From an uncultured Clostridia bacterium (GTDB lineage: Bacteria > UBA6262 > WVXT01), in the NCBI GenBank assembly GCA_964345635.1, contig CAYFRM010000075.1:11531-75530 (forward strand): a stretch of 64,000 bases of DNA. The letters run 5' to 3'. The notes under the pieces were generated by a model. It was not told the origin of the DNA, did not search any database, and saw nothing but the letters and a program-made list of their open reading frames with translations. This document shows positions 2,915-63,462 of this stretch, piece by piece. The first letter of the stretch is position 1, and each line of letters opens with the position of its first letter. The position numbers were made by a program, and so were the translations under genes.

Positions 2915-3673
2915 ATGAACAGACTTTCAGTAATTATCATTACCTACAACGAAGAAGAAAATATTGGAGACTGTCTGGAAAACGTCAAGTGGTCTGACGA
3001 GATTGTAATTGTTGACGCTTTCAGTAGTGATAGGACTGTGGAGATAGCCCGAGAATTCACCCCCCGGGTATTCCGGAACAGATGGACCGACTTTTCTCAG
3101 CAAAAGAACTTAGCCTTGGGAAAAGCAAGCAACGACTGGGTATTAAGTATAGATGCTGACGAACGCGTTACGCCAGAATTGAAGGAAGAAATCATCAACA
3201 TCCTCAATTCCCCGTCTCCACCGTTCAATGGTTACTATATAGCGAGAAGAAGTCACTATCTGGGAAAATGGATCAAGCATTGTGGATGGTATCCCGACTA
3301 TAAGTTACGCCTGTTTCTGAGAGAAAAAGGGAAATTTAACGAAAGGATGGTGCATGAATCTGTACTGGTAGAAGGCAGGAAAGGCCGCCTTAAGTCCTGC
3401 CTGGACCATTATTCATATAAAAACTTATCCGACCATTTAAGCAAAATTGATAAGTTCACTTCCCTCTCTGCCGGGGAAATGTTTACAAAAGGTAAGAAAG
3501 GGACAACATTCGATTTGCTTTTTCGGCCGCCGGTCAAGTTTATCAATATGTACCTGATAAAGAAAGGTTTTCTGGACGGCATATATGGGTTTATTGTTTG
3601 CATTATCGGGAGCTTCTACGTGTTTATGAAATATCTGAAACTCTGGCTGCTGTCGAGGGAGAGAATCGATTGA
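2915..3673 (+). CDS. Glycosyltransferase family 2
   Basis: 252 aa; 'LSVIIITYNEEENI...VIVDAFSSDRT' GT2 N-terminal signature; DAD-like motif 'IDADE'. Confidence 0.75.
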   Translation: MNRLSVIIITYNEEENIGDCLENVKWSDEIVIVDAFSSDRTVEIAREFTPRVFRNRWTDFSQQKNLALGKASNDWVLSIDADERVTPELKEEIINILNSPSPPFNGYYIARRSHYLGKWIKHCGWYPDYKLRLFLREKGKFNERMVHESVLVEGRKGRLKSCLDHYSYKNLSDHLSKIDKFTSLSAGEMFTKGKKGTTFDLLFRPPVKFINMYLIKKGFLDGIYGFIVCIIGSFYVFMKYLKLWLLSRERID

Positions 3674-5852: not shown

Positions 5853-6932
5853 TTGAATACTGTATTACATATCGATTCAGCAAAAACCTGGAGGGGTGGC
5901 CAGCAGCAAGTTCTCTATCTTGCCCAGAAGCTAGGAGACTACCATAACATAATTGCCTGCCCTCCTCAAAGCCCTCTGGCAGAAAGAGCGAAAGATGCAG
6001 GATTAAAAGTCTTCCCCGTCAACATGCGCGGGGAATGGGATCTTGGGGCAGTATGCAAATTAAGAAAGATAATAAGAAAAAACTCTATTAAAATAGTCCA
6101 TCTCCATTCTCCCCACGCCCACGCGTTGGGCCTGCTGGCGGCAAAAAGTGGGGGAAATTGCAAAGTCGTTCTGTCGCGCAGAGTCGATTTTCCCATTAAG
6201 AAGAATCTGCCCAGTCGCCTGAAGTATTCAAAGGTTGACGGGGTAATAGCAATTTCTGAGAGAGTTAAAAGAGTTTTACTTGCCGACGGATTATCGGAAG
6301 AGAAAATCGATGTTGTCTACAGCGGGATAGATATGGACAGATTTCAAGATACAAAGGGAGACTATCTTATTTCTGAATTGGCACTAAATAGAAATAGTTT
6401 ACGCATAGGGAATATTGCTGCTCTTGCCTGGCATAAAGACCACAAAACTCTTATTGCAGCGGCAAGAGTTGTGATAGATGAATTTCCTCAGGCGGTATTT
6501 TTAATAGCAGGAGAAGGCCCTCTTCGCGAAGAGTTAGAGATTTTAGTCAAAAAATTGGATTTACAAGAAAAGGTGAAATTATTGGGATTTCGCCAGGATA
6601 TTCCGGAAATACTCTCTATTTTCGATATTTTCGTGCTATCTTCCAGCTGGGAAGGGTTAGGCACTTCGCTTCTGGATGCTTTTGCTTCGCGAGTACCCGT
6701 AATAGCCACCAACGTGGGAGGAATCCCCGAGATTGTCAGAGACGGGGTAAATGGAATCCTGGTTCCTCCCGGAGATCCGAAAGCCTTATCCAGAGCCATC
6801 ATTTCTCTTCTGAAGAACAAAGACCTTGCGGGTCGAATAGCAAAAGAAGGTTTTCACCTGGCAAAAGAGAAGTTCAGTGTAGAAAGAATGGCCCGGGACA
6901 CAAAAAAGATTTACGACCGCCTGGTAATTTAG
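5853..6932 (+). CDS. Glycosyltransferase family 4 (WaaG/RfaG-like)
   Basis: 359 aa; 'GLGTSLLDAFASRVPVIATNVGGIPEIVRDGVNGILVPPGD' canonical GT4 motif. Confidence 0.8.
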   Translation: MNTVLHIDSAKTWRGGQQQVLYLAQKLGDYHNIIACPPQSPLAERAKDAGLKVFPVNMRGEWDLGAVCKLRKIIRKNSIKIVHLHSPHAHALGLLAAKSGGNCKVVLSRRVDFPIKKNLPSRLKYSKVDGVIAISERVKRVLLADGLSEEKIDVVYSGIDMDRFQDTKGDYLISELALNRNSLRIGNIAALAWHKDHKTLIAAARVVIDEFPQAVFLIAGEGPLREELEILVKKLDLQEKVKLLGFRQDIPEILSIFDIFVLSSSWEGLGTSLLDAFASRVPVIATNVGGIPEIVRDGVNGILVPPGDPKALSRAIISLLKNKDLAGRIAKEGFHLAKEKFSVERMARDTKKIYDRLVI

Positions 6933-7008
6933 GTTTTACCCCGTTAGAAATGGATGTTACAAATTCTCCTGAGGGAATTTCTAACGGGGTTTATGCCCGT
7001 AATGTTTT
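6931..7008 (+). repeat. Repeat family B, copy B1 (hairpin element, loop orientation '+')
   Basis: CCCCGTTAGAAAT-[25-nt loop GGATGTTACAAATTCTCCTGAGGGA]-ATTTCTAACGGGG perfect 13-bp stem, flanks ..TTTACC / GTTTATGCCCGTAAT. Confidence 0.85.
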
Positions 7009-7944: not shown

Positions 7945-8093
7945 AATGTAGCTTGAGAGCGATAGCTCTGCATTGTAGGGGCGACACTCCGTGGTCGCCC
8001 AAAGGAAGGGACGGCACAGAGTCCGTCCCCTACAGACAGGCAAAGCTTACGCTTTGCTGCTACAAAATTGGTTGGCAGTGTAGGGCTTTACGT
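7945..8093 (+). repeat. Repeat family A, copy A2, fused to a family-B flank fragment (8069-8093)
   Basis: Same modules as A1 in permuted order; ends with GTGTAGGGCTTTACGTCCGTAATGG (family B host motif without hairpin). Confidence 0.8.
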
Positions 8094-8124
8094 CCGTAAT
8101 GGCTTTAAGCAGGGGAGAAGAAAG

Positions 8125-12039: not shown

Positions 12040-12210
12040 ATGGCCATTAACAAAGAGCTATTGGATATCTTAGCCTGCCCCAAATGCAAGGGCGATGTCC
12101 ATTTAAACGAGAAAGAAGACGGGATAATATGTGATAACTGTAAACTGATTTATCCTATTAAAGACGACATTCCCATAATGTTGATCGATGAAGCCATCCC
12201 GTTAAAGTAA
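12040..12210 (+). CDS. Trm112/YcaR-like small zinc-ribbon protein (UPF0434)
   Basis: 56 aa ORF missed by >=60 aa track: MAINKELLDILACPKCKGDVHL..IICDNCKLIYPIKDDIPIML; CPxC..C..C pattern; ycaR-kdsB adjacency is conserved in E. coli. Confidence 0.65.
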   Translation: MAINKELLDILACPKCKGDVHLNEKEDGIICDNCKLIYPIKDDIPIMLIDEAIPLK

Positions 12211-13117: not shown

Positions 13118-13309
13118 GTGTGCATGCGTTGTCCAAAATGTGGGTATGATAACAAAGAAGATGCCAAAGTCTGCGTAAAATGTAAGGCGGATCTTAAGTC
13201 AAATCTCATAGAAGAGCCAACCTGGAAATGGCATCTGAAAGTTTTGGCGATCATCTATGCTATCCTGGGTATTGCCTATATTTTATTGCGCATATTTCTA
13301 AAAGATTAA
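13118..13309 (+). CDS. Small zinc-ribbon membrane protein (hypothetical)
   Basis: 63 aa; N-terminal CPKCG..C..C zinc ribbon then one hydrophobic helix. Confidence 0.4.
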   Translation: MCMRCPKCGYDNKEDAKVCVKCKADLKSNLIEEPTWKWHLKVLAIIYAILGIAYILLRIFLKD

Positions 13310-13381
13310 CTTTCCATCCTCTGGGGCTATGATGATAAATTCCCTTCTTCCCGGGAGGGATAATGCGAGGAGGAGTATCTC

Positions 13382-14344: not shown

Positions 14345-14428
14345 GTAGTGTAGGGCTTTACCCCGTTAGAAATTCCCTCAGCAGAATTTGTAACAGCCAT
14401 TTCTAACGAGGTTTATGCCCGTAATATT
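14345..14428 (+). repeat. Repeat family B, copy B2 (same flanks as B1, loop reverse-complemented)
   Basis: GTAGTGTAGGGCTTTA-CCCCGTTAGAAAT-[TCCCTCAGCAGAATTTGTAACAGCC]-ATTTCTAACGAGG-TTTATGCCCGTAAT. Confidence 0.85.
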
Positions 14429-15532: not shown

Positions 15533-16192
15533 ATGAAGAAAAGTATTGCACTTTTTTTGCCGTTCGTTTTTGTAAGCGTAGTTCTAGCGGAGAACCCGAA
15601 ACAAACAGTGAACATCGCCGGAGAGAGGATGGAAGTATTGAAAAAAGGGGAAATCACCCGTTTTCTGGGGAATGTAAGATTGGTCAGGCACACAGATACA
15701 ATAACTTCCGATATAATGGAACGTTATGAGAAAAAAAACTACGTGGTAGGAAAAGGAAACGTGCATCTTACGGCCTATCCGAAAAAATCCTTAAGGATGG
15801 AAGCTTTTTCTGACCGATTAACTTATAACGTAGACGGCAAGAAAAGTGTTCTTACCGGCAATCCAAGGCTTATCCGAATCGATGAAGATAATCCCGAAGA
15901 CAGAATAAAAATGGAAGGACAGGTAATAAAGCTGTCGGGTAATGAGAAAAAAATAAATGTGCAGGGCGATACCAGGGTAGAACACGGAAGAATAACTGCT
16001 ACAGGCAAACTTCTCGACTACGATTATGAAATAAAGAAAATTGTTCTTACCGGAGATTCTCCCCGTATTTACCAGGATGACGAACAGGTAAAGGCTGACT
16101 ACGCGGCAGAAACCATTACCATATTCATCGATGAAGAGAGAGTCATTATGGAGGGGAATGTAAAAGCATCTATTTATCCCAAGAAACGGTAG
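15533..16192 (+). CDS. lptA: LPS transport periplasmic protein LptA (OstA-like N-terminal domain)
   Basis: 219 aa; signal peptide, repeated OstA-like beta-strand pattern, synteny before lptB. Confidence 0.7.
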   Translation: MKKSIALFLPFVFVSVVLAENPKQTVNIAGERMEVLKKGEITRFLGNVRLVRHTDTITSDIMERYEKKNYVVGKGNVHLTAYPKKSLRMEAFSDRLTYNVDGKKSVLTGNPRLIRIDEDNPEDRIKMEGQVIKLSGNEKKINVQGDTRVEHGRITATGKLLDYDYEIKKIVLTGDSPRIYQDDEQVKADYAAETITIFIDEERVIMEGNVKASIYPKKR

Positions 16193-16196
16193 TGTG

Positions 16197-16281
16197 ACCC
16201 TTTACGGGCATAAATCTCGTTAGAAATGGATGTTACAAATTCTCCTGAGGGAATTTCTAACGGGGTAAAGCCCTGTACCAC
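16197..16281 (+). repeat. Repeat family B, copy B3 (whole element inverted relative to B2)
   Basis: CCCTTTACGGGCATAAA-TCTCGTTAGAAAT-[GGATGTTACAAATTCTCCTGAGGGA]-ATTTCTAACGGGG-TAAAGCCCTGTACC. Confidence 0.85.
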
Positions 16282-31474: not shown

Positions 31475-33185
31475 AGAAAAAATTTCCGAGTTGATCGAAC
31501 AGGGAAAAGAGACGGGAAAACTAACCTATCAGGAGATAAACGAGCAACTTCCCGAAAGTATAGTCGATTCTGACGAAATAGACGATATTCTCAGTAAACT
31601 TGACGAGCTGGGAATCGATGTCGTAGATAAAATTGCCCTGATTGAAAGGCCGGAGAAAGCAGAGGAGGAAAAGGGAGGTTTAGTCCCCATAACTCCCGCT
31701 ACCGAAATAGAGACGAGCGATTCCATAAAGATGTACCTGAACGAGATGGGCAAGGTTTCTCTGCTCAGTCGCGCTCAGGAGATGCATTTAGCCAAGAGCA
31801 TAAAGGACAATGAAAAAAAGCTGAAACAAGTAGCGTTAGAATCACCTATAGCTTTAAGGGAGATAAAGCTAATGGGTAAGATGTTAGAGAAACGCGAAAT
31901 TACTCCCAAGGAGTTGATGCCGCGGGGTCGAAAGACCGGCGCGGCTTTGGCCAGAATGAGGCAGAAGATGAAAAGGGTCGTTCGGGAAATCACCAAAGGC
32001 GAGAGAAAAATCCTGGCCTACGAGAAGAGATTGAAAGCGAAGAGAATTACTCCTAAGTCAAGAGAGAAAGTGGAGAAATTATTGTCCCAGGAAAAGAAGA
32101 AAATTCTGCAGCAAATTCTGGATTTGAACTTGAAAGCAGATAAGATTAAGAAAATAATTATAAAAATCAAACACACGGGTCTAAGATTGAGACAGATAGA
32201 AAAAGAAAGCGCTTACTATCAACGAAAGCTTAAACTTTCCTTTCCTGAGGCTAGGAAACTATGGCGCAGAGCCAGGGCGAGGAAAATGTCCCGGGTGGAA
32301 TTCAAGAAGAAAACGGGAGTAACCATAAAAGAGATCAAGGGAATACACAAGAATTTGAGGAACGTGTCTCAGCGTCTCCTGCAGCTGCAGCGAGCGGTGG
32401 GAATGGACTTCTTGGCGATAAAGGAGCTGCACAAGCAGGTTATGCAACTGGAGTCAGAAATTCTCGACGGTAAACTGAAACTGGTTAAGGCAAACTTGAG
32501 GCTGGTGGTCAGTATTGCCAAGAAACATATCAATCCCAACCTTTCTTTGTTAGATTTGATTCAGGAGGGCAGTATCGGGCTGATGAAAGCGGTTGACAAA
32601 TTCGAATATAAGAGGGGGTTTAAGTTTTCCACGTATGCAACCTGGTGGATCAGGCAGTCTATAAATCGGGCAATAGCCGACCAGGCCCGCACTATTAGAA
32701 TTCCTGTACATATGAAAGAGATTATTAGCAAATTGACCAAAATTGCCCGGCGCTATCGTCAGAAATACGGGCGCGATCCTCTAATTGAAGAATATGCCAA
32801 GGAAATGAAGATGGCGCCGGAAAGAATACGCGCCGTGCTGAAGATAATGCAAGAGCCGATATCCCTGGCTACTCCCATCGGCGAGGAAGAAGAAAGCCAC
32901 CTGGAAGATTTCATCGAAGACCGCGATAACCTGTCCCCGGTGAATATTGCCCTGGATGTTCTACGCCAGAAGGAGATAGAGAAAGTATTGTCTACTTTGA
33001 CCGAACGGGAGGCAAAGATTATCAAATTGAGATTTGGTATCGGAGTGGGATATCCCCGCACTTTAGAAGAGGTAGGCCATATATTTAATGTAACCAGAGA
33101 AAGAGTGAGACAGATCGAGGCAAAAGCGATAAGAAAACTGCGACATCCTTCACGTAGCAAGTATTTGAGAGAATACGTTGAATAA
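31461..33185 (+). CDS. rpoD: RNA polymerase sigma factor RpoD (sigma-70)
   Basis: 574 aa; region 2.4 '[11 protein letters not shown]', region 4.2 '[16 protein letters not shown]'; dnaG-rpoD synteny. Confidence 0.9.
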
Positions 33186-33208
33186 AAAAAGGGGACAGGC
33201 TACTTTTT
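33184..33208 (+). repeat. Repeat family C, solo copy C2 (A7-GGGGACAGGCTAC-T5) immediately after rpoD stop
   Basis: Exact reverse complement of C1b/C5b core. Confidence 0.7.
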
Positions 33209-33254
33209 GACCCAGCAGAGCGAAGCTGTGGCGTGCCATGTGCCAATATATATA

Positions 33255-35457: not shown

Positions 35458-35460
35458 ACA

Positions 35461-35485
35461 AAAAAGGGGACAGGTACTTTTTTGC
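35461..35485 (+). repeat. Repeat family C, solo copy C3 after nrdJ stop
   Basis: AAAAAAGGGGACAGGTACTTTTTTG. Confidence 0.7.
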
Positions 35486-35530
35486 ATTTTTGACGATCCC
35501 GGAGAGTCCAAGTAAAATTCCAGGCACAAT

Positions 35531-38626: not shown

Positions 38627-38700
38627 GGGCCCATAGCTCAGCTGGTTAGAGCACCTGACTCATAATCAGGGAGTCCTAGGTTCGAATCCTAGTGGGCCCA
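38627..38700 (+). tRNA. tRNA with CAT anticodon (elongator Met or Ile2/lysidine type; 1:72 base-paired so not initiator)
   Basis: Cloverleaf: acceptor GGGCCCA/TGGGCCC, D-arm GCTCAGCTGGTTAGAGC, anticodon loop CTCATAA, T-arm GGTTCGAATCC; CCA not encoded. Confidence 0.8.
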
Positions 38701-42362: not shown

Positions 42363-43568
42363 ATGCACGACCTGATAATTTTAATTGCTGCTCTGGGAAT
42401 TATTCTGATTCTTTTCAAATGGAGACTGAATCTCACTCTGACTATGATAGTAGCGGCACTCTTTCTGGGTATCGCGTACAGGTTTAATTCGACAGAGATT
42501 TCGAAAACTTTTTATTCTGCTTGCGTCTCCAGGGAGACCCTGGAGATTGCCGCCACACTCTTTTTCGTGATCATATTCAACCTTTGTATGACCGCGGCCT
42601 ATACTTTCAAGAAAATAATTAGCAATATGAAAAATATACTGTCGGACATAAGGTGGATTATCGCCGTTGTTCCCGCGGTAATCGGTTTTCTTCCCATGTT
42701 TGGTGGTGCTCTCGTTTCCGCTCCCGTGGTAAAAAAAGTCACCCAGGAAATGGGCATATCAAACGAGCGAAAAACCTTTCTCAATTTTTGGTTTAGACAT
42801 ATCTGGGAGTATACCCTGCCGCTCTACCCGGGAATCCTGGTGGCTGCGGGTATTCTGGGCGTGCCCGTCTACAGGATAATCGCCAGCAATAGCATCCTGA
42901 CTGTGAGTGCAATTGTTATAGGGATAATTTGGGGTACCGGGAGATTGAAACGGAGAACCGAACATTCTCCGGAAGTTTTTTCCGGAAAAGGTCAGGCAAT
43001 TCTCAATTTTCTCTTCAACCTATCGCCAATTATCCTGGTGATGGTTCTGGTTCTCGTTTTCAGGTTAAAAGTTTTATACGCTCTCATTGCGGCAATAATG
43101 TTCACGATCATCGCCAATAAGATTCCCCTTAGAAAAATTTTGCGCACTGTGAAAGAAGAGAAGTACGGGATGATTCTTATGGTCTTTGCCATTATGATTT
43201 TCAAGGGAATGTTGACAGCCACAGGGATAATAGAGCGCCTGCCTCTTTTCTTTAAGAGTGCGGGCATTCCCCGGTACCTGGTTATTTCTTTTCTTCCTTT
43301 CATTGCGGGTTTTTTAACGGGAATGACCATGGCCGCAGTGGGCATCACTTTCCCGGTTATTCTGCCCCTTTTTGATGGTAAGTTATCACTTATGACTTTT
43401 TCCTTTATGTGTGGATTTGCCGGGGTCTTGTTGACACCCGTCCACTTTTGCCTGGCGTTAACCAGAGAATATTTCCGGGCTGACTGGCTGAAACTTTATC
43501 GCAAAGAATTGATTCTTCCGGTATTCCTGATGATAGTAATCGGACTTATTTATACTGTGATAGTGTAG
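42363..43568 (+). CDS. Polytopic integral membrane protein (DUF401-like, putative transporter)
   Basis: About 400 aa, 10 or more hydrophobic segments; start chosen at 'MHDLIIL' after terminator/promoter. Confidence 0.45.
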   Translation: MHDLIILIAALGIILILFKWRLNLTLTMIVAALFLGIAYRFNSTEISKTFYSACVSRETLEIAATLFFVIIFNLCMTAAYTFKKIISNMKNILSDIRWIIAVVPAVIGFLPMFGGALVSAPVVKKVTQEMGISNERKTFLNFWFRHIWEYTLPLYPGILVAAGILGVPVYRIIASNSILTVSAIVIGIIWGTGRLKRRTEHSPEVFSGKGQAILNFLFNLSPIILVMVLVLVFRLKVLYALIAAIMFTIIANKIPLRKILRTVKEEKYGMILMVFAIMIFKGMLTATGIIERLPLFFKSAGIPRYLVISFLPFIAGFLTGMTMAAVGITFPVILPLFDGKLSLMTFSFMCGFAGVLLTPVHFCLALTREYFRADWLKLYRKELILPVFLMIVIGLIYTVIV

Positions 43569-43630
43569 GTGTAGGGGCGGCACTCCGTGGCCGCCCAGGG
43601 AAGGGACGGCACAGAGTCCGCCCCCTGCAG
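43564..43630 (+). repeat. Repeat family A, compact copy A3
   Basis: GTAGGGGCGGCACTCCGTGGCCGCCC..GGGACGGCACAGAGTCCGCCCCCTGCAG; two internal 7-bp-stem hairpins inside an outer GTAG/CTAC-type closing stem. Confidence 0.8.
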
Positions 43631-43649
43631 AAATGAAAAGGAGACAATA

Positions 43650-49141: not shown

Positions 49142-49245
49142 TGTAGTGTAGGGGCGGCGCTCCGTGGCCGCCCAGAGTAAGGGACGGCACAGAGTCCGTC
49201 CCCTACACATAGACAAAATTGACACACTTTGCTGTTACATTCTTG
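49142..49245 (+). repeat. Repeat family A, compact copy A4 plus degenerate CTTTGCTG(T/C)TACA module
   Basis: TGTAGTGTAGGGGCGGCGCTCCGTGGCCGCCC..GGGACGGCACAGAGTCCGTCCCCTACA; downstream CACTTTGCTGTTACAT resembles A1/A2 tail. Confidence 0.8.
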
Positions 49246-50395: not shown

Positions 50396-50465
50396 CGATG
50401 TAGGTAGTGTAGGGCTTTATGCCCGTCCCCATTAATCGGGACGCCCATAAAGGGCTACACTACTC
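50396..50465 (+). repeat. Family B host-motif copy without hairpin insert (B4), flanked by GCAGAGCGAAGCTCTGC hairpin
   Basis: GTAGGTAGTGTAGGGCTTTATGCCCGTCCCC..GGGACGCCCATAAAGGGCTACACTAC imperfect long inverted repeat; upstream 50369-50385 GCAGAGC-gaa-GCTCTGC. Confidence 0.7.
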
Positions 50466-53145: not shown

Positions 53146-53217
53146 GGGCAATTAGCTCAGCGGGAGAGCGCTGCTTTCACAAGGCAGAGGTCGCTGGTTC
53201 AACCCCAGCATTGCCCA
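53146..53217 (+). tRNA. tRNA-Val (CAC)
   Basis: Acceptor GGGCAAT/ATTGCCC, D-arm GCTCAGCGGGAGAGC, anticodon stem-loop CTGCT-TTCACAA-GGCAG, T-arm GCTGGTTCAACCCCAGC. Confidence 0.8.
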
Positions 53218-55564: not shown

Positions 55565-55860
55565 GGCTTGAAGTGAACCGGATGGTTGCTCCGATGTTTA
55601 TCGGAGAGGAAAGTCCGAACTCCACAGGGCGGAGTGTTCCGTGTAAACGGAAGGGGAGTAATCCTACGGAAAGTGGCACAGAAACCAGGTACAGGTAATG
55701 CTGTAGTGAAAAGGCTAAACCCCACTCGGAGCAAGACCGAATAGCAGAGAAGAGACGGCCCGTCTCGTTACTACTCTACGGGTTGGTCGCTCAGATAAAT
55801 AACCATCGTTCCGATTTATAGTCGGAATACAGGATTCGGCTTACAGGTTCATTTCAAGCC
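55565..55860 (+). ncRNA. rnpB: RNase P RNA (bacterial type A), compact (about 296 nt)
   Basis: P1 pairing GGCTTGAAGTGAACC/GGTTCATTTCAAGCC; P4 'GAGGAAAGTCCGAACTCCACAGGGC'; 'GTGAAAAGGCTAAACCCCAC', 'AATAG', 3' 'ACAGGATTCGGCTTACAG' match universally conserved regions; followed by T-run. Confidence 0.8.
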
Positions 55861-60377: not shown

Positions 60378-61059
60378 GGGAAATGATTTCATAGATTTAG
60401 ACACTCTTTTCGATTTTACCGATAACAGTAAAGCCGAAATCTATCTACCGAAGATATACTGCTCCACGATTAAAAGTATCGTAGCCAATGCTTTAACCAT
60501 AAAATTGGACCTTATCATTTTTGATAACGGCTATAGCAAGTGTGACAATGGCAGATTTGTTAGTGAAATTCTCAAGCGTGAGCTTGATGTGCCTATAATT
60601 ACCACTCAAAATAACGCTACTCGCAGGCACCCTCAACCGATATGCGAAAGTGGTCTGGCACTGAGAAAGAAATTTGACTTGATAGTGGACAGTGTCGTCA
60701 AGGACGTTGATAAGTCAAAATTGAAACGCGCCGAGCCGGATTATGGCTTCTGGGGAGTTCCTCCCAATGATTTCAGCATACTTGATCTGTTTCCTGAGAA
60801 AACCCACGTTTTCGGGTGGGCAAGGTGTATGGAGGCAAAAGTTCCCGCGGACCTGGAATTGGAAATGTTGGTAAGGGAGGACCTGCCCACGGTATTCTAC
60901 GCCCAGGCTTTCTGCAGCAAGAACTCCTTAGCCAGGTATCTGGCAAAGAAACATAACGGACTCTATGTTGAGGTTGATGACGTTCTTGATAATTCCGTAA
61001 AACGCAAAATCGAAGCTTACCTCTTACTAAACAGGAAAAAGGGACAGGTACTTTTTTGA
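60325..61059 (+). CDS. Hypothetical protein (possibly partner/DUF2229-like component of the downstream ATPase)
   Basis: 244 aa; GGGGAG RBS; overlaps yhhQ end by 53 nt; C-terminus encodes repeat-C motif. Confidence 0.4.
   Translation: MKIGIVGVPPQEILDKYKGNDFIDLDTLFDFTDNSKAEIYLPKIYCSTIKSIVANALTIKLDLIIFDNGYSKCDNGRFVSEILKRELDVPIITTQNNATRRHPQPICESGLALRKKFDLIVDSVVKDVDKSKLKRAEPDYGFWGVPPNDFSILDLFPEKTHVFGWARCMEAKVPADLELEMLVREDLPTVFYAQAFCSKNSLARYLAKKHNGLYVEVDDVLDNSVKRKIEAYLLLNRKKGQVLF
61036..61057 (+). repeat. Repeat family C, solo copy C4 forming the last 7 codons and stop of CDS 60325-61059
   Basis: AAAAAGGGACAGGTACTTTTTTGA encodes ..KKGQVLF*. Confidence 0.65.
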
Positions 61060-61073
61060 CGGAGTGAGGCGAT

Positions 61074-63409: not shown

Positions 63410-63462
63410 CAGGTACAATTTTTAGAAATAGAAATGTAAAAAAGTAGCCTGTCCCCTTTTTT
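63400..63462 (+). repeat. Repeat family C, inverted pair C5 (AAAAAGTGACAGGTAC..12 nt..GTAGCCTGTCCCC-T6) overlapping sppA stop; potential terminator
   Basis: Same architecture as C1 with shorter spacer. Confidence 0.7.

Follow-up and report, generated by a model that had tools for sequence, protein, structure and literature searches.

A 64,000-nt window of contig CAYFRM010000075.1, labelled as DNA of an uncultured Clostridia bacterium, carries three copies of a small hairpin, here named B1, B2 and B3. These are very probably copies of a non-autonomous transposable element of the miniature inverted-repeat type (MITE), 51 bp long, with 13-bp terminal inverted repeats (TIRs; 5'-CCCCGTTAGAAAT), no coding capacity, and a 4-bp target duplication of the form YNNR, mostly TTTA or TAAA. 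Insertion, target duplication, orthologous alleles with and without the element in three lineages, dispersed subfamilies, a distribution over several phyla, and frame-preserving copies inside genes are all observed. The MITE features present are the TIRs, a fixed-length duplication that is single at empty sites, small size, the lack of a transposase gene, and multiple dispersed copies. The result for the window itself is modest, and the interest lies in the family that its three copies reveal.

Each copy consists of two 13-nt arms (CCCCGTTAGAAAT/ATTTCTAACGGGG, the pair of ends also being written CCCCGTTAG...CTAACGGGG) around a 25-nt loop. A first-pass annotation of the window had described this architecture, and all three arm pairs were located. 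With up to 2 mismatches, CCCCGTTAGAAAT has 8 matches in the window, against 2.3 expected, and 8 matches were reached in 0 of 100 shuffles. The elements and their target duplications are as follows.

6939 to 6989, no strand assigned: B1 element; arms 6939-6951 (+) and 6977-6989 (-), loop 6952-6976, in the GGATG...AGGGA orientation
6935 to 6938 (left copy) and 6990 to 6993 (right copy): B1 target duplication, TTTA
14361 to 14411, no strand assigned: B2 element; arms 14361-14373 (+) and 14399-14411 (-, 1 mismatch), loop 14374-14398, in the TCCCT...AGCC orientation
14357 to 14360 and 14412 to 14415: B2 target duplication, TTTA
16215 to 16265, no strand assigned: B3 element; arms 16215-16227 (+, 2 mismatches) and 16253-16265 (-), loop 16228-16252
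16211 to 16214 and 16266 to 16269: B3 target duplication, TAAA

The B1 loop, GGATGTTACAAATTCTCCTGAGGGA, and the B2 loop read in reverse complement agree at 23 of 25 positions, as had been noticed, and B3 is indeed the whole element inverted, being the reverse complement of the entire B2 unit across 80 nt at 93%. On the plus strand the B1 and B3 hairpins are identical over 49-53 nt, while B2 has 3-4 differences. The B1 and B2 flanks had been called identical. This stands for the TTTA to the left and the TTTATGCCCGTAAT to the right, which both share, but not for the sequence further left, where the head of a repetitive extragenic palindromic (REP)-like repeat is degenerate in B1 (GTAATTTAGGTTTTA, against GTAGTGTAGGGCTTTA in B2).

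All three copies lie in cistron junctions, as originally described. These junctions are 89-115 nt long and separate co-directional genes, identified by Pfam as GT1-family/GT1-family (B1), KdsD (SIS+CBS)/KdsC (B2) and LptA/LptB (B3). In this subfamily the 51-nt element adds 55 bp together with its duplication and does not preserve a reading frame, which fits a strictly intergenic location; none of the three (0/3) is intragenic. RNA folding of the three units gives the 13-14-bp stem that was expected, on top of a short outer stem of GGGC/GCCC, with energies of -24 to -26 kcal/mol (z -2.9 to -3.8; B1 -26.4 kcal/mol, z -3.5). A terminator scan called none of the three hairpins, which have a 25-nt loop and no T-run, unlike an intrinsic terminator. 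Rfam found only an RNase P RNA (55570-55859) and two tRNAs (38627-38700 and 53146-53217) over the window at gathering score, and around B2 just chance-level matches with E above 1. The hairpin ends in CCCC...GGGG at both sides and carries no GTAG or CGTC tag, so that by this mark it is not itself a REP.

Host repeats, filled sites and empty sites

The sequence that surrounds the hairpins is a repeat in its own right. This host motif, GTAGTGTAG-GGC-TTTAT-GCC-CGTAAT, is extragenic and combines a GTAG head with a small stem-loop; it also occurs as head-to-head pairs and, at 50404-50463, as a compensatory variant (GCCC...GGGC). Tag, stem-loop, head-to-head pairing and compensatory variants are traits of GTAG-tagged REPs (PMC3733652), and judged by these traits the motif fits the class of GTAG-type REP-like repeats (GGGC-TTTAT-GCCC). 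Seven recognisable units are present in the window, three of them filled, and the empty pattern has 5 matches there against 0.04 expected.

6924 to 7003, plus strand: B1 host, a GTAG-type REP-like unit, degenerate and interrupted by the insertion; head 6924-6938, tail TTTATGCCCGTAAT 6990-7003
14345 to 14425, plus strand: B2 host REP-like unit, GTAGTGTAGGGC-TTTA[element]TTTA-TGCCCGTAAT
16201 to 16281, minus strand: B3 host REP-like unit, split by the B3 element
16189 to 16209, plus strand: unfilled REP-like unit GTAGTGTGACCCTTTACGGGC, the head-to-head partner of the B3 host; its TAG serves lptA as stop codon
8075 to 8100, plus strand: unfilled REP-like host unit GCAGTGTAGGGCTTTACGTCCGTAAT, a paralogous empty site
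50404 to 50463, both strands: unfilled head-to-head pair, GTAGTGTAGGGCTTTATGCCC on the plus strand (50404-50426) and GTAGTGTAGCCCTTTATGGGC on the minus strand (50441-50463)

The copies without a hairpin that had been noticed earlier correspond to the units at 8075-8100, 50404-50426 and 50441-50463; the one at 16189-16209 is additional. In the 50404-50463 pair the swap from GGGC/GCCC to GCCC/GGGC is compensatory, each unit has a single TTTA, and the RNA fold reaches -33.8 kcal/mol (z -5.4). The equivalent units are filled in the relatives L047, L085, L106 and L118. As a side observation, the TAG of the REP head doubles as the upstream stop codon at 6930-6932, where the B1 host head overlaps the end of a GT1-family gene, at 16190-16192 (lptA), and at the B1 site of L123.

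The first-pass annotation had proposed a discrete mobile hairpin that inserts at a TTTA target, to be sought as presence or absence in relatives, and such a comparison supports it. A KdsA scan of metagenome contigs yielded the syntenic contigs L123-L127 (72-85% nucleotide identity), a genome scan yielded L109 (~85%), and the closest relatives are L208-L210 (90-93%). The B2 site is filled in the window and in L109 (GTAGTGTAGGGCTTTA[51 nt]TTTATGCCCG), and empty in L124 and L125 (GTAGTGTAG(A/G)GCTTTATGCCCG). The B1 site, filled in the window, is empty in L123 with a single TTTA (TAGGGCTTTATGCCCGTAAT), and the B3 site, likewise filled in the window, is empty in L124 and L125 (GGGCATA(A/G)AGCC; GGGCATAAAGCCC). 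At the kdsB/kdsA junction only L109 is filled, L123 and L124 are empty, and the window has no repeat. Each filled site is flanked on either side by the tetramer (TTTA or TAAA), which occurs once at every empty site. The single TTTA or TAAA without a hairpin in relatives means that a REP-like repeat received the hairpin in its loop, with 4 bp of the target being duplicated. The KdsD/KdsC junction of L208-L210 is only 14 nt long and holds neither repeat nor hairpin, indicating that both layers are dispensable and recent. The window copies are thus recent, dispensable insertions into older REP-like repeats at operon junctions.

The element family across phyla and inside genes

Two aspects escaped the first-pass annotation: the host motif is itself REP-like, and the hairpin belongs to a family that spans several phyla and is frequently found in frame within genes. 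When one genome per species was scanned with the pattern CGTTAGAAAT-N21-29-ATTTCTAACG, at least 118 loci with the same arms emerged, against ~5 expected for uniform composition in 596 Gb. Among the matches listed are Omnitrophota, Planctomycetota (Pirellulales, Phycisphaerae, Sedimentisphaerales), Patescibacteria (Parcu-, Saccharibacteria and others), Elusimicrobia, Edwardsbacteria, and others. The Omnitrophota metagenome-assembled genome (MAG) UBA1562 alone has copies on more than 20 contigs, and the loci of CAYOFG01, the species-representative genome closest to the window (L007, L046, L109 and others), hold at least 10.

Relaxing the arms gave a set of 134 copies. An exact 4-nt direct repeat abuts the arms in 89 of them, compared with 1/134 in a shifted control, and a 5-nt flanking repeat in none (0/134). 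All duplicated tetramers have the form YNNR (TAAA 28, TTTA 22, TGAA 10, with CAAG, CGTG and TGAG among the others), and TTAA does not occur (0/89). The pattern left the three outermost arm bases free; in 250 half-sites they are C in 76%, 96% and 95% of cases. Loops are variable, mostly 21-29 nt, most elements measure 47-55 nt, and the same ends with duplication are found from 28-29 nt (arms plus a 3-nt loop) up to 279 nt. Loop subfamilies are lineage-specific, with 14 copies in that of the window, 15 in a Planctomycete one, at least 11 dispersed in UBA1562, and several subfamilies in Patescibacteria; this argues against bin contamination and for amplification within genomes. In the other phyla there is no REP host for the element, and outside the window lineage the flanks pair no better than shuffled partners, which speaks against hairpin loops as a general target. 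Viruses and plasmids contribute little: 1 match in IMG/VR, and 0 in INPHARED and in PLSDB. A literature search by arm sequence and topic found no description of the element. Some Patescibacteria loops (L025 4278-4324; L211, in PGK) hold a GC-rich inner hairpin of their own (GTCCCGC-TCG-GCGGGAC versus GGACGC-...-GCGTCC), whose stems differ between copies in a manner suggestive of covariation inside the loop.

Of the 134 copies, 53 fall within stop-free stretches of 150 codons or more, compared with 74% of random windows, so the family is depleted from genes yet far from excluded. Length plus 4 is divisible by three in 82/134 copies (61%, p = 4e-11). Host genes encode UvrA, DNA polymerase I (PolA), topoisomerase I (TopA), a penicillin-binding protein, MurJ, MnmE, PGK, PheS, PheT, Asd, PPDK and an RND pump. 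The arms can be read as (N)PVRN...ISNG(V) or (T)PLEI...FLTG, the third frame having TAG/TAA, and intragenic copies would be translated as (N)PVRN-x-ISNG(V) or (T)PLEI-x-FLTG. Alignment of Asd with solved homologues has an 18-residue gap precisely at the insert, and the PGK alignment breaks at its insert. Pfam and NCBIfam match nothing in the encoded peptides but a genuine prepilin motif beside the insert. In Planctomycetes, prepilin leaders carry the element (...KGFT|PLEI...FLTG|FTLIELLVV), where duplication of the TTYA of the GFT codons regenerates the cleavage motif; prepilin paralogues in the same arrays are without it. In one prepilin leader (L093 2171-2251, L010 ~3074-3154) a 53-nt copy and a 29-nt arms-only copy stand back to back, and the leader reads ...FTPLEI...FLTGPVRKRFSNGAGFTLIELL. 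Translational bypass or splicing was considered for the intragenic copies and is unnecessary, since they are stop-free and frame-preserving.

Two genes allow same-site copies to be compared. Of 120 Omnitrophota MurJ orthologues, 11 have RRF|TPLEI-x9-FLTG|FKHP, 3 have remnants, and the others read RR|FKHP; the carriers are scattered on a neighbour-joining tree, with sisters that are without the insert. The DNA of five carriers reads TTTA|arms...arms|TTTA, and an empty allele (protein 90% identical) has a single TTTA. Among these five, the flanks differ by 31-36% per site (35/60 variable columns on each side) and the loop by 23% (11/27 variable columns), synonymous changes included, while the arms have 0/26 variable columns. 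Three of the five were found by protein homology only, and ascertainment therefore does not explain the invariant arms. Orthologues P0019, P0088 and P0098 retain partial inserts (e.g. RRFSP-RFLTGF); the element thus also decays by internal in-frame deletion, besides precise loss. Among 120 Patescibacteria PGK orthologues, two are filled, at one TTTA. They are 63% identical to each other, their loops (21 and 24 nt) are in opposite orientation, and the closest relative of one is an empty allele. Repeated occupation of the same codon would reflect either recurrent insertion or old insertions with many precise losses.

Mechanism and rival explanations

If the hairpins are MITE-type elements, a trans-acting enzyme would recognise the 13-bp ends, cut the target with a 4-bp stagger and join the element to it, and gap repair would then produce the duplication, following the pattern of DDE cut-and-paste transposition. 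Precise loss could be the work of this enzyme too, or result from slippage of replication from one 4-bp repeat to the other across the hairpin. In the window lineage, the copies that survive lie in the 5-nt loop of the GTAG-type REP-like repeat, within short intergenic stretches where an addition of 55 bp would be harmless. Insertion in either direction, proposed earlier, agrees with the occurrence of both loop orientations relative to the host motif, and the opposite loop of B1 would represent an independent insertion in the other orientation.

Several points weigh against this explanation. A search of the 64-kb window and of 1.69 Mb of fetched loci revealed neither an autonomous element nor a transposase gene with matching ends. 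A Pfam scan of all 61 open reading frames (ORFs) of the window gave no DDE, Y1, TnpB, integrase or recombinase domain, and the TnpA(Y1)/TnpB gene with matching ends that had been suggested as a search target is thus absent from the window. Arm-like sites that share their 4-nt flanks, paired over distances of up to 4 kb, gave only chance pairings of short elements, clustering of the 623 ORFs of at least 200 aa from all loci gave a single large cluster, of pilin-like proteins, and the IS4/IS5-type motif Y-2-R-3-E-6-K has 3 irrelevant matches in the 1.69 Mb. Ends of 13 bp that are merely 3-29 bp apart are an unusual substrate for the synapse of a classical transposase. Counted over independent sites, one orientation relative to the REP host prevails by 8:1. 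In distantly related MurJ and PGK genes the insert occupies the same codon position while it is missing from sister lineages, for which a 4-bp target preference alone is insufficient, and invariant arms between flanks that have diverged by 31-36% are not predicted for a neutrally decaying parasite.

The 8:1 bias leads to the alternative that survives best, which concerns only the B1/B2 difference and leaves the element an insertion: the loop may have been inverted in place, by recombination or template switching across the 13-bp arms. This is possible, although it is not the favoured account. Inversion within perfect inverted-repeat arms would leave the flanks unchanged, the bias suits one preferred or founder orientation with a rare flip, and the two PGK copies at one site also differ in loop orientation. 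However, the identity of B1 with B3, and the 3-4 differences of B2, fit a recent B3-like source copy that inserted the other way round, and no site was seen in both orientations within one population. Look-ups of exact proteins for population polymorphism gave only contigs 100% identical to the window. Two contigs from Logan ERR2564001, L120 and L122, do break at B3 and B1, starting at the equivalents of window positions 16237 and 6961, where exactly 30 nt of the B1/B3 shared sequence remain; such an overhang is expected for k = 31, and the breaks do not indicate heterogeneity. The element thus breaks k = 31 assemblies, and the L109 contig likewise stops at the B3 site.

The same-codon copies and invariant arms bear on a second alternative, a self-contained palindromic element served by an unrecognised, possibly host-encoded or widely conserved enzyme, with site selectivity well above 4 bp and precise integration and excision. 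An enzyme specific for the 13-bp hairpin or palindrome would, if real, explain jointly the invariant arms in essential genes, the reoccupation of the same codon, and the arms-only elements of 28-29 bp. This proposal is tentative. In a related variant, the host would have co-opted the hairpin or its peptide for a function of its own.

Host selection could also have kept the arm sequence, if a conserved protein recognised the hairpin, as a binding site or as a structure in RNA or DNA, and the window copies acted as inter-cistronic mRNA structures. The lack of variation in the MurJ arms between diverged flanks and loops, the retention of the same 13 nt across phyla, the stability of the fold, and the position of all window copies in operon junctions speak for this. 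It is nevertheless unlikely: occurrence is patchy, the closest relatives being without the copies at all of the sites examined; covariation is lacking, the sequence itself rather than the pairing alone being conserved; loop, length and position are unconstrained; there is neither an Rfam match nor a terminator-like tail; and the target duplications show an origin by insertion. An inter-cistronic RNA role is not required, because the 14-nt KdsD/KdsC junction of L208-L210 does without either repeat.

A further reading takes REP and hairpin together as the spreading unit, copied after one founding insertion by a REP-associated tyrosine transposase (RAYT) or by gene conversion between REPs. Ten of the 12 copies in the window and CAYOFG01 sit in the same REP loop, whole REP units are also gained and lost between relatives, and the orientation bias would follow as well. 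Concentration in the loop could, on the other hand, reflect target preference or survival at a harmless site. In relatives, four sites show the REP in the corresponding position but are free of the hairpin; for the composite this would need replacement of the unit, whereas insertion of a hairpin is simple. B1 has the opposite orientation, the two other CAYOFG01 copies (L007, L024) lie outside REPs, each with its own TAAA duplication, the other phyla have no REP host, and the window has no RAYT gene. The composite unit is for these reasons quite improbable.

The weakest alternative, mentioned in the first-pass annotation, is a palindrome-associated transposable element (PATE) or some other derivative of IS200/IS605, which a Y1 HUH transposase would move in single-stranded form and insert 3' of TTAC; in spite of the hairpin structure, a left junction of TTTAC, and GTAG-type REPs, which Y1 enzymes mobilise, in the same genome, this is contradicted by the exact 4-nt duplication on both sides (89/134) with single-copy empty sites, by the symmetric, perfect inverted-repeat ends, by target tetramers as diverse as CAAG, CGTG and TGAG, and by the absence of Y1 and TnpB genes from the window, and is very improbable indeed. 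An attC-like site was also considered and rejected, the GTTAGAA/TTCTAAC boxes being in reversed order relative to attC and a target duplication being present.

Other features of the window and comparison with known systems

The window contains two more repeat families. A second REP family, of classical GTAG type (GTAGGGGCGAC...GTCGCCC), forms intergenic clusters in which TGTAGGGGCGAC-loop-GTCGCCC is paired with GGGACGGCACAGAGTCCGTCCCCTAC (2743-2895, 7947-8044, 43564-43639 and 49142-49217), one of them immediately upstream of the unfilled host unit at 8075. The third family, AAAAAAGGGGACAGG(C)TACTTTTTT, has copies at 4652-4675/4721-4744, 33185-33214, 35460-35489, 61034-61063 and 63436-63462, which take either orientation and in some cases form an inverted pair spaced by 45 nt. 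It is also present in L109 and L124 at the kdsB/kdsA junction, where the window is without it, and is therefore probably one more small repeat of a mobile or terminator-like kind. The bias in gene orientation is extreme, with 60 of 61 ORFs (at least 120 aa) on the plus strand and a single minus-strand ORF without a Pfam match; there are no mobile-element genes. Two small conserved ORFs, at 12040-12210 between kdsB and kdsA (a Trm112p-like zinc ribbon) and at ~13124-13310 between kdsA and kdsD (a DZR zinc ribbon), are called in L208-L210. CAYOFG01 is labelled 'uncultured Clostridia bacterium'; the nearest named KdsA (P0124, 94% identity) carries the label Elusimicrobiota, and genes for a full Kdo/Lpt pathway are present at the locus, which makes the Clostridia label doubtful.

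PATEs and other IS200/IS605-derived elements produce no target duplication, have asymmetric ends with subterminal hairpins, and insert 3' of a fixed tetra- or pentanucleotide. Ends that start with CC and a 4-5-bp duplication are the hallmark of the IS1380 family of insertion sequences (IS), to which the eukaryotic piggyBac is related; piggyBac has a 13-bp repeat, CCCTAGAAAGATA, the target TTAA, and precise excision. The present element shares with these the CC(C) start, a repeat of ~13 bp (CCCTAGAAAGATA compared with CCCCGTTAGAAAT) and the 4-bp duplication, a likeness that offers a lead only, and it differs from piggyBac in that TTAA is absent among the 89 exact duplications. Non-coding plastid DNA shows hairpin-loop inversion (flip-flop) between unchanged arms and flanks, the same pattern as in B1 and B2, but there the hairpins are resident and not inserted mobile copies.

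Bacterial MITEs such as Correia/CREE, RUP, ERIC, Nezha and QMITE are usually ~100-400 bp in length, restricted to a genus or family, and often matched to an IS that has identical ends (PMC10969869, PMC3184786). The element resembles them in its TIRs, target duplication, dispersed copies, absence of a transposase gene, occasional in-frame copies and RNA hairpins, while being several times shorter, having the same ends across phyla, and having no partner in the loci searched. REPs, the bacterial interspersed mosaic elements (BIMEs) that they form, and RAYTs are known with GTAG and CGTC tags, and intragenic REPs have been described (PMC3733652). Unlike REPs, which are thought to be moved by Y1 enzymes without duplication, the hairpin is untagged, has symmetric ends and produces a 4-bp duplication.

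The closest parallel for the intragenic copies is provided by the Rickettsia palindromic elements (RPEs; Ogata et al. 2000, 2002), which are summarised in PMC10969869 as ~100-150 bp in length and confined to Rickettsia. As in that summary, the present elements are short palindromes without coding capacity that occur between genes and also within housekeeping genes of unrelated kinds, in frame, so that the product would gain a peptide segment. They are set apart from RPEs, as these are described in PMC10969869, by a length of mostly 47-55 bp (down to 28-29), by invariant ends across several host phyla, by a perfect 13-bp terminal repeat with a 4-bp duplication, and by clean filled and empty alleles. 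The 2024 review treats the Rickettsia palindromes inside genes as an exceptional case (PMC10969869). Selfish palindromes within genes, regarded there as a peculiarity of Rickettsia, are thus also found in uncultivated Omnitrophota, Planctomycetota and Patescibacteria, including very small genomes. They constitute a natural experiment on surface positions of essential enzymes that tolerate insertions of 17-19 residues. In practical terms, the element affects the annotation, alignment and assembly of MAGs, because contigs break at its copies. An enzyme that inserts and precisely removes a hairpin of 30-55 bp at defined sites would be of interest for the biology of mobile elements, and possibly as a tool. 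Among the systems compared, the family is set apart by its size (mostly 47-55 bp, with a minimum of 28-29), by ends that are unchanged across phyla, by the 4-bp YNNR duplication, and by the repeated occupation of the same codon.

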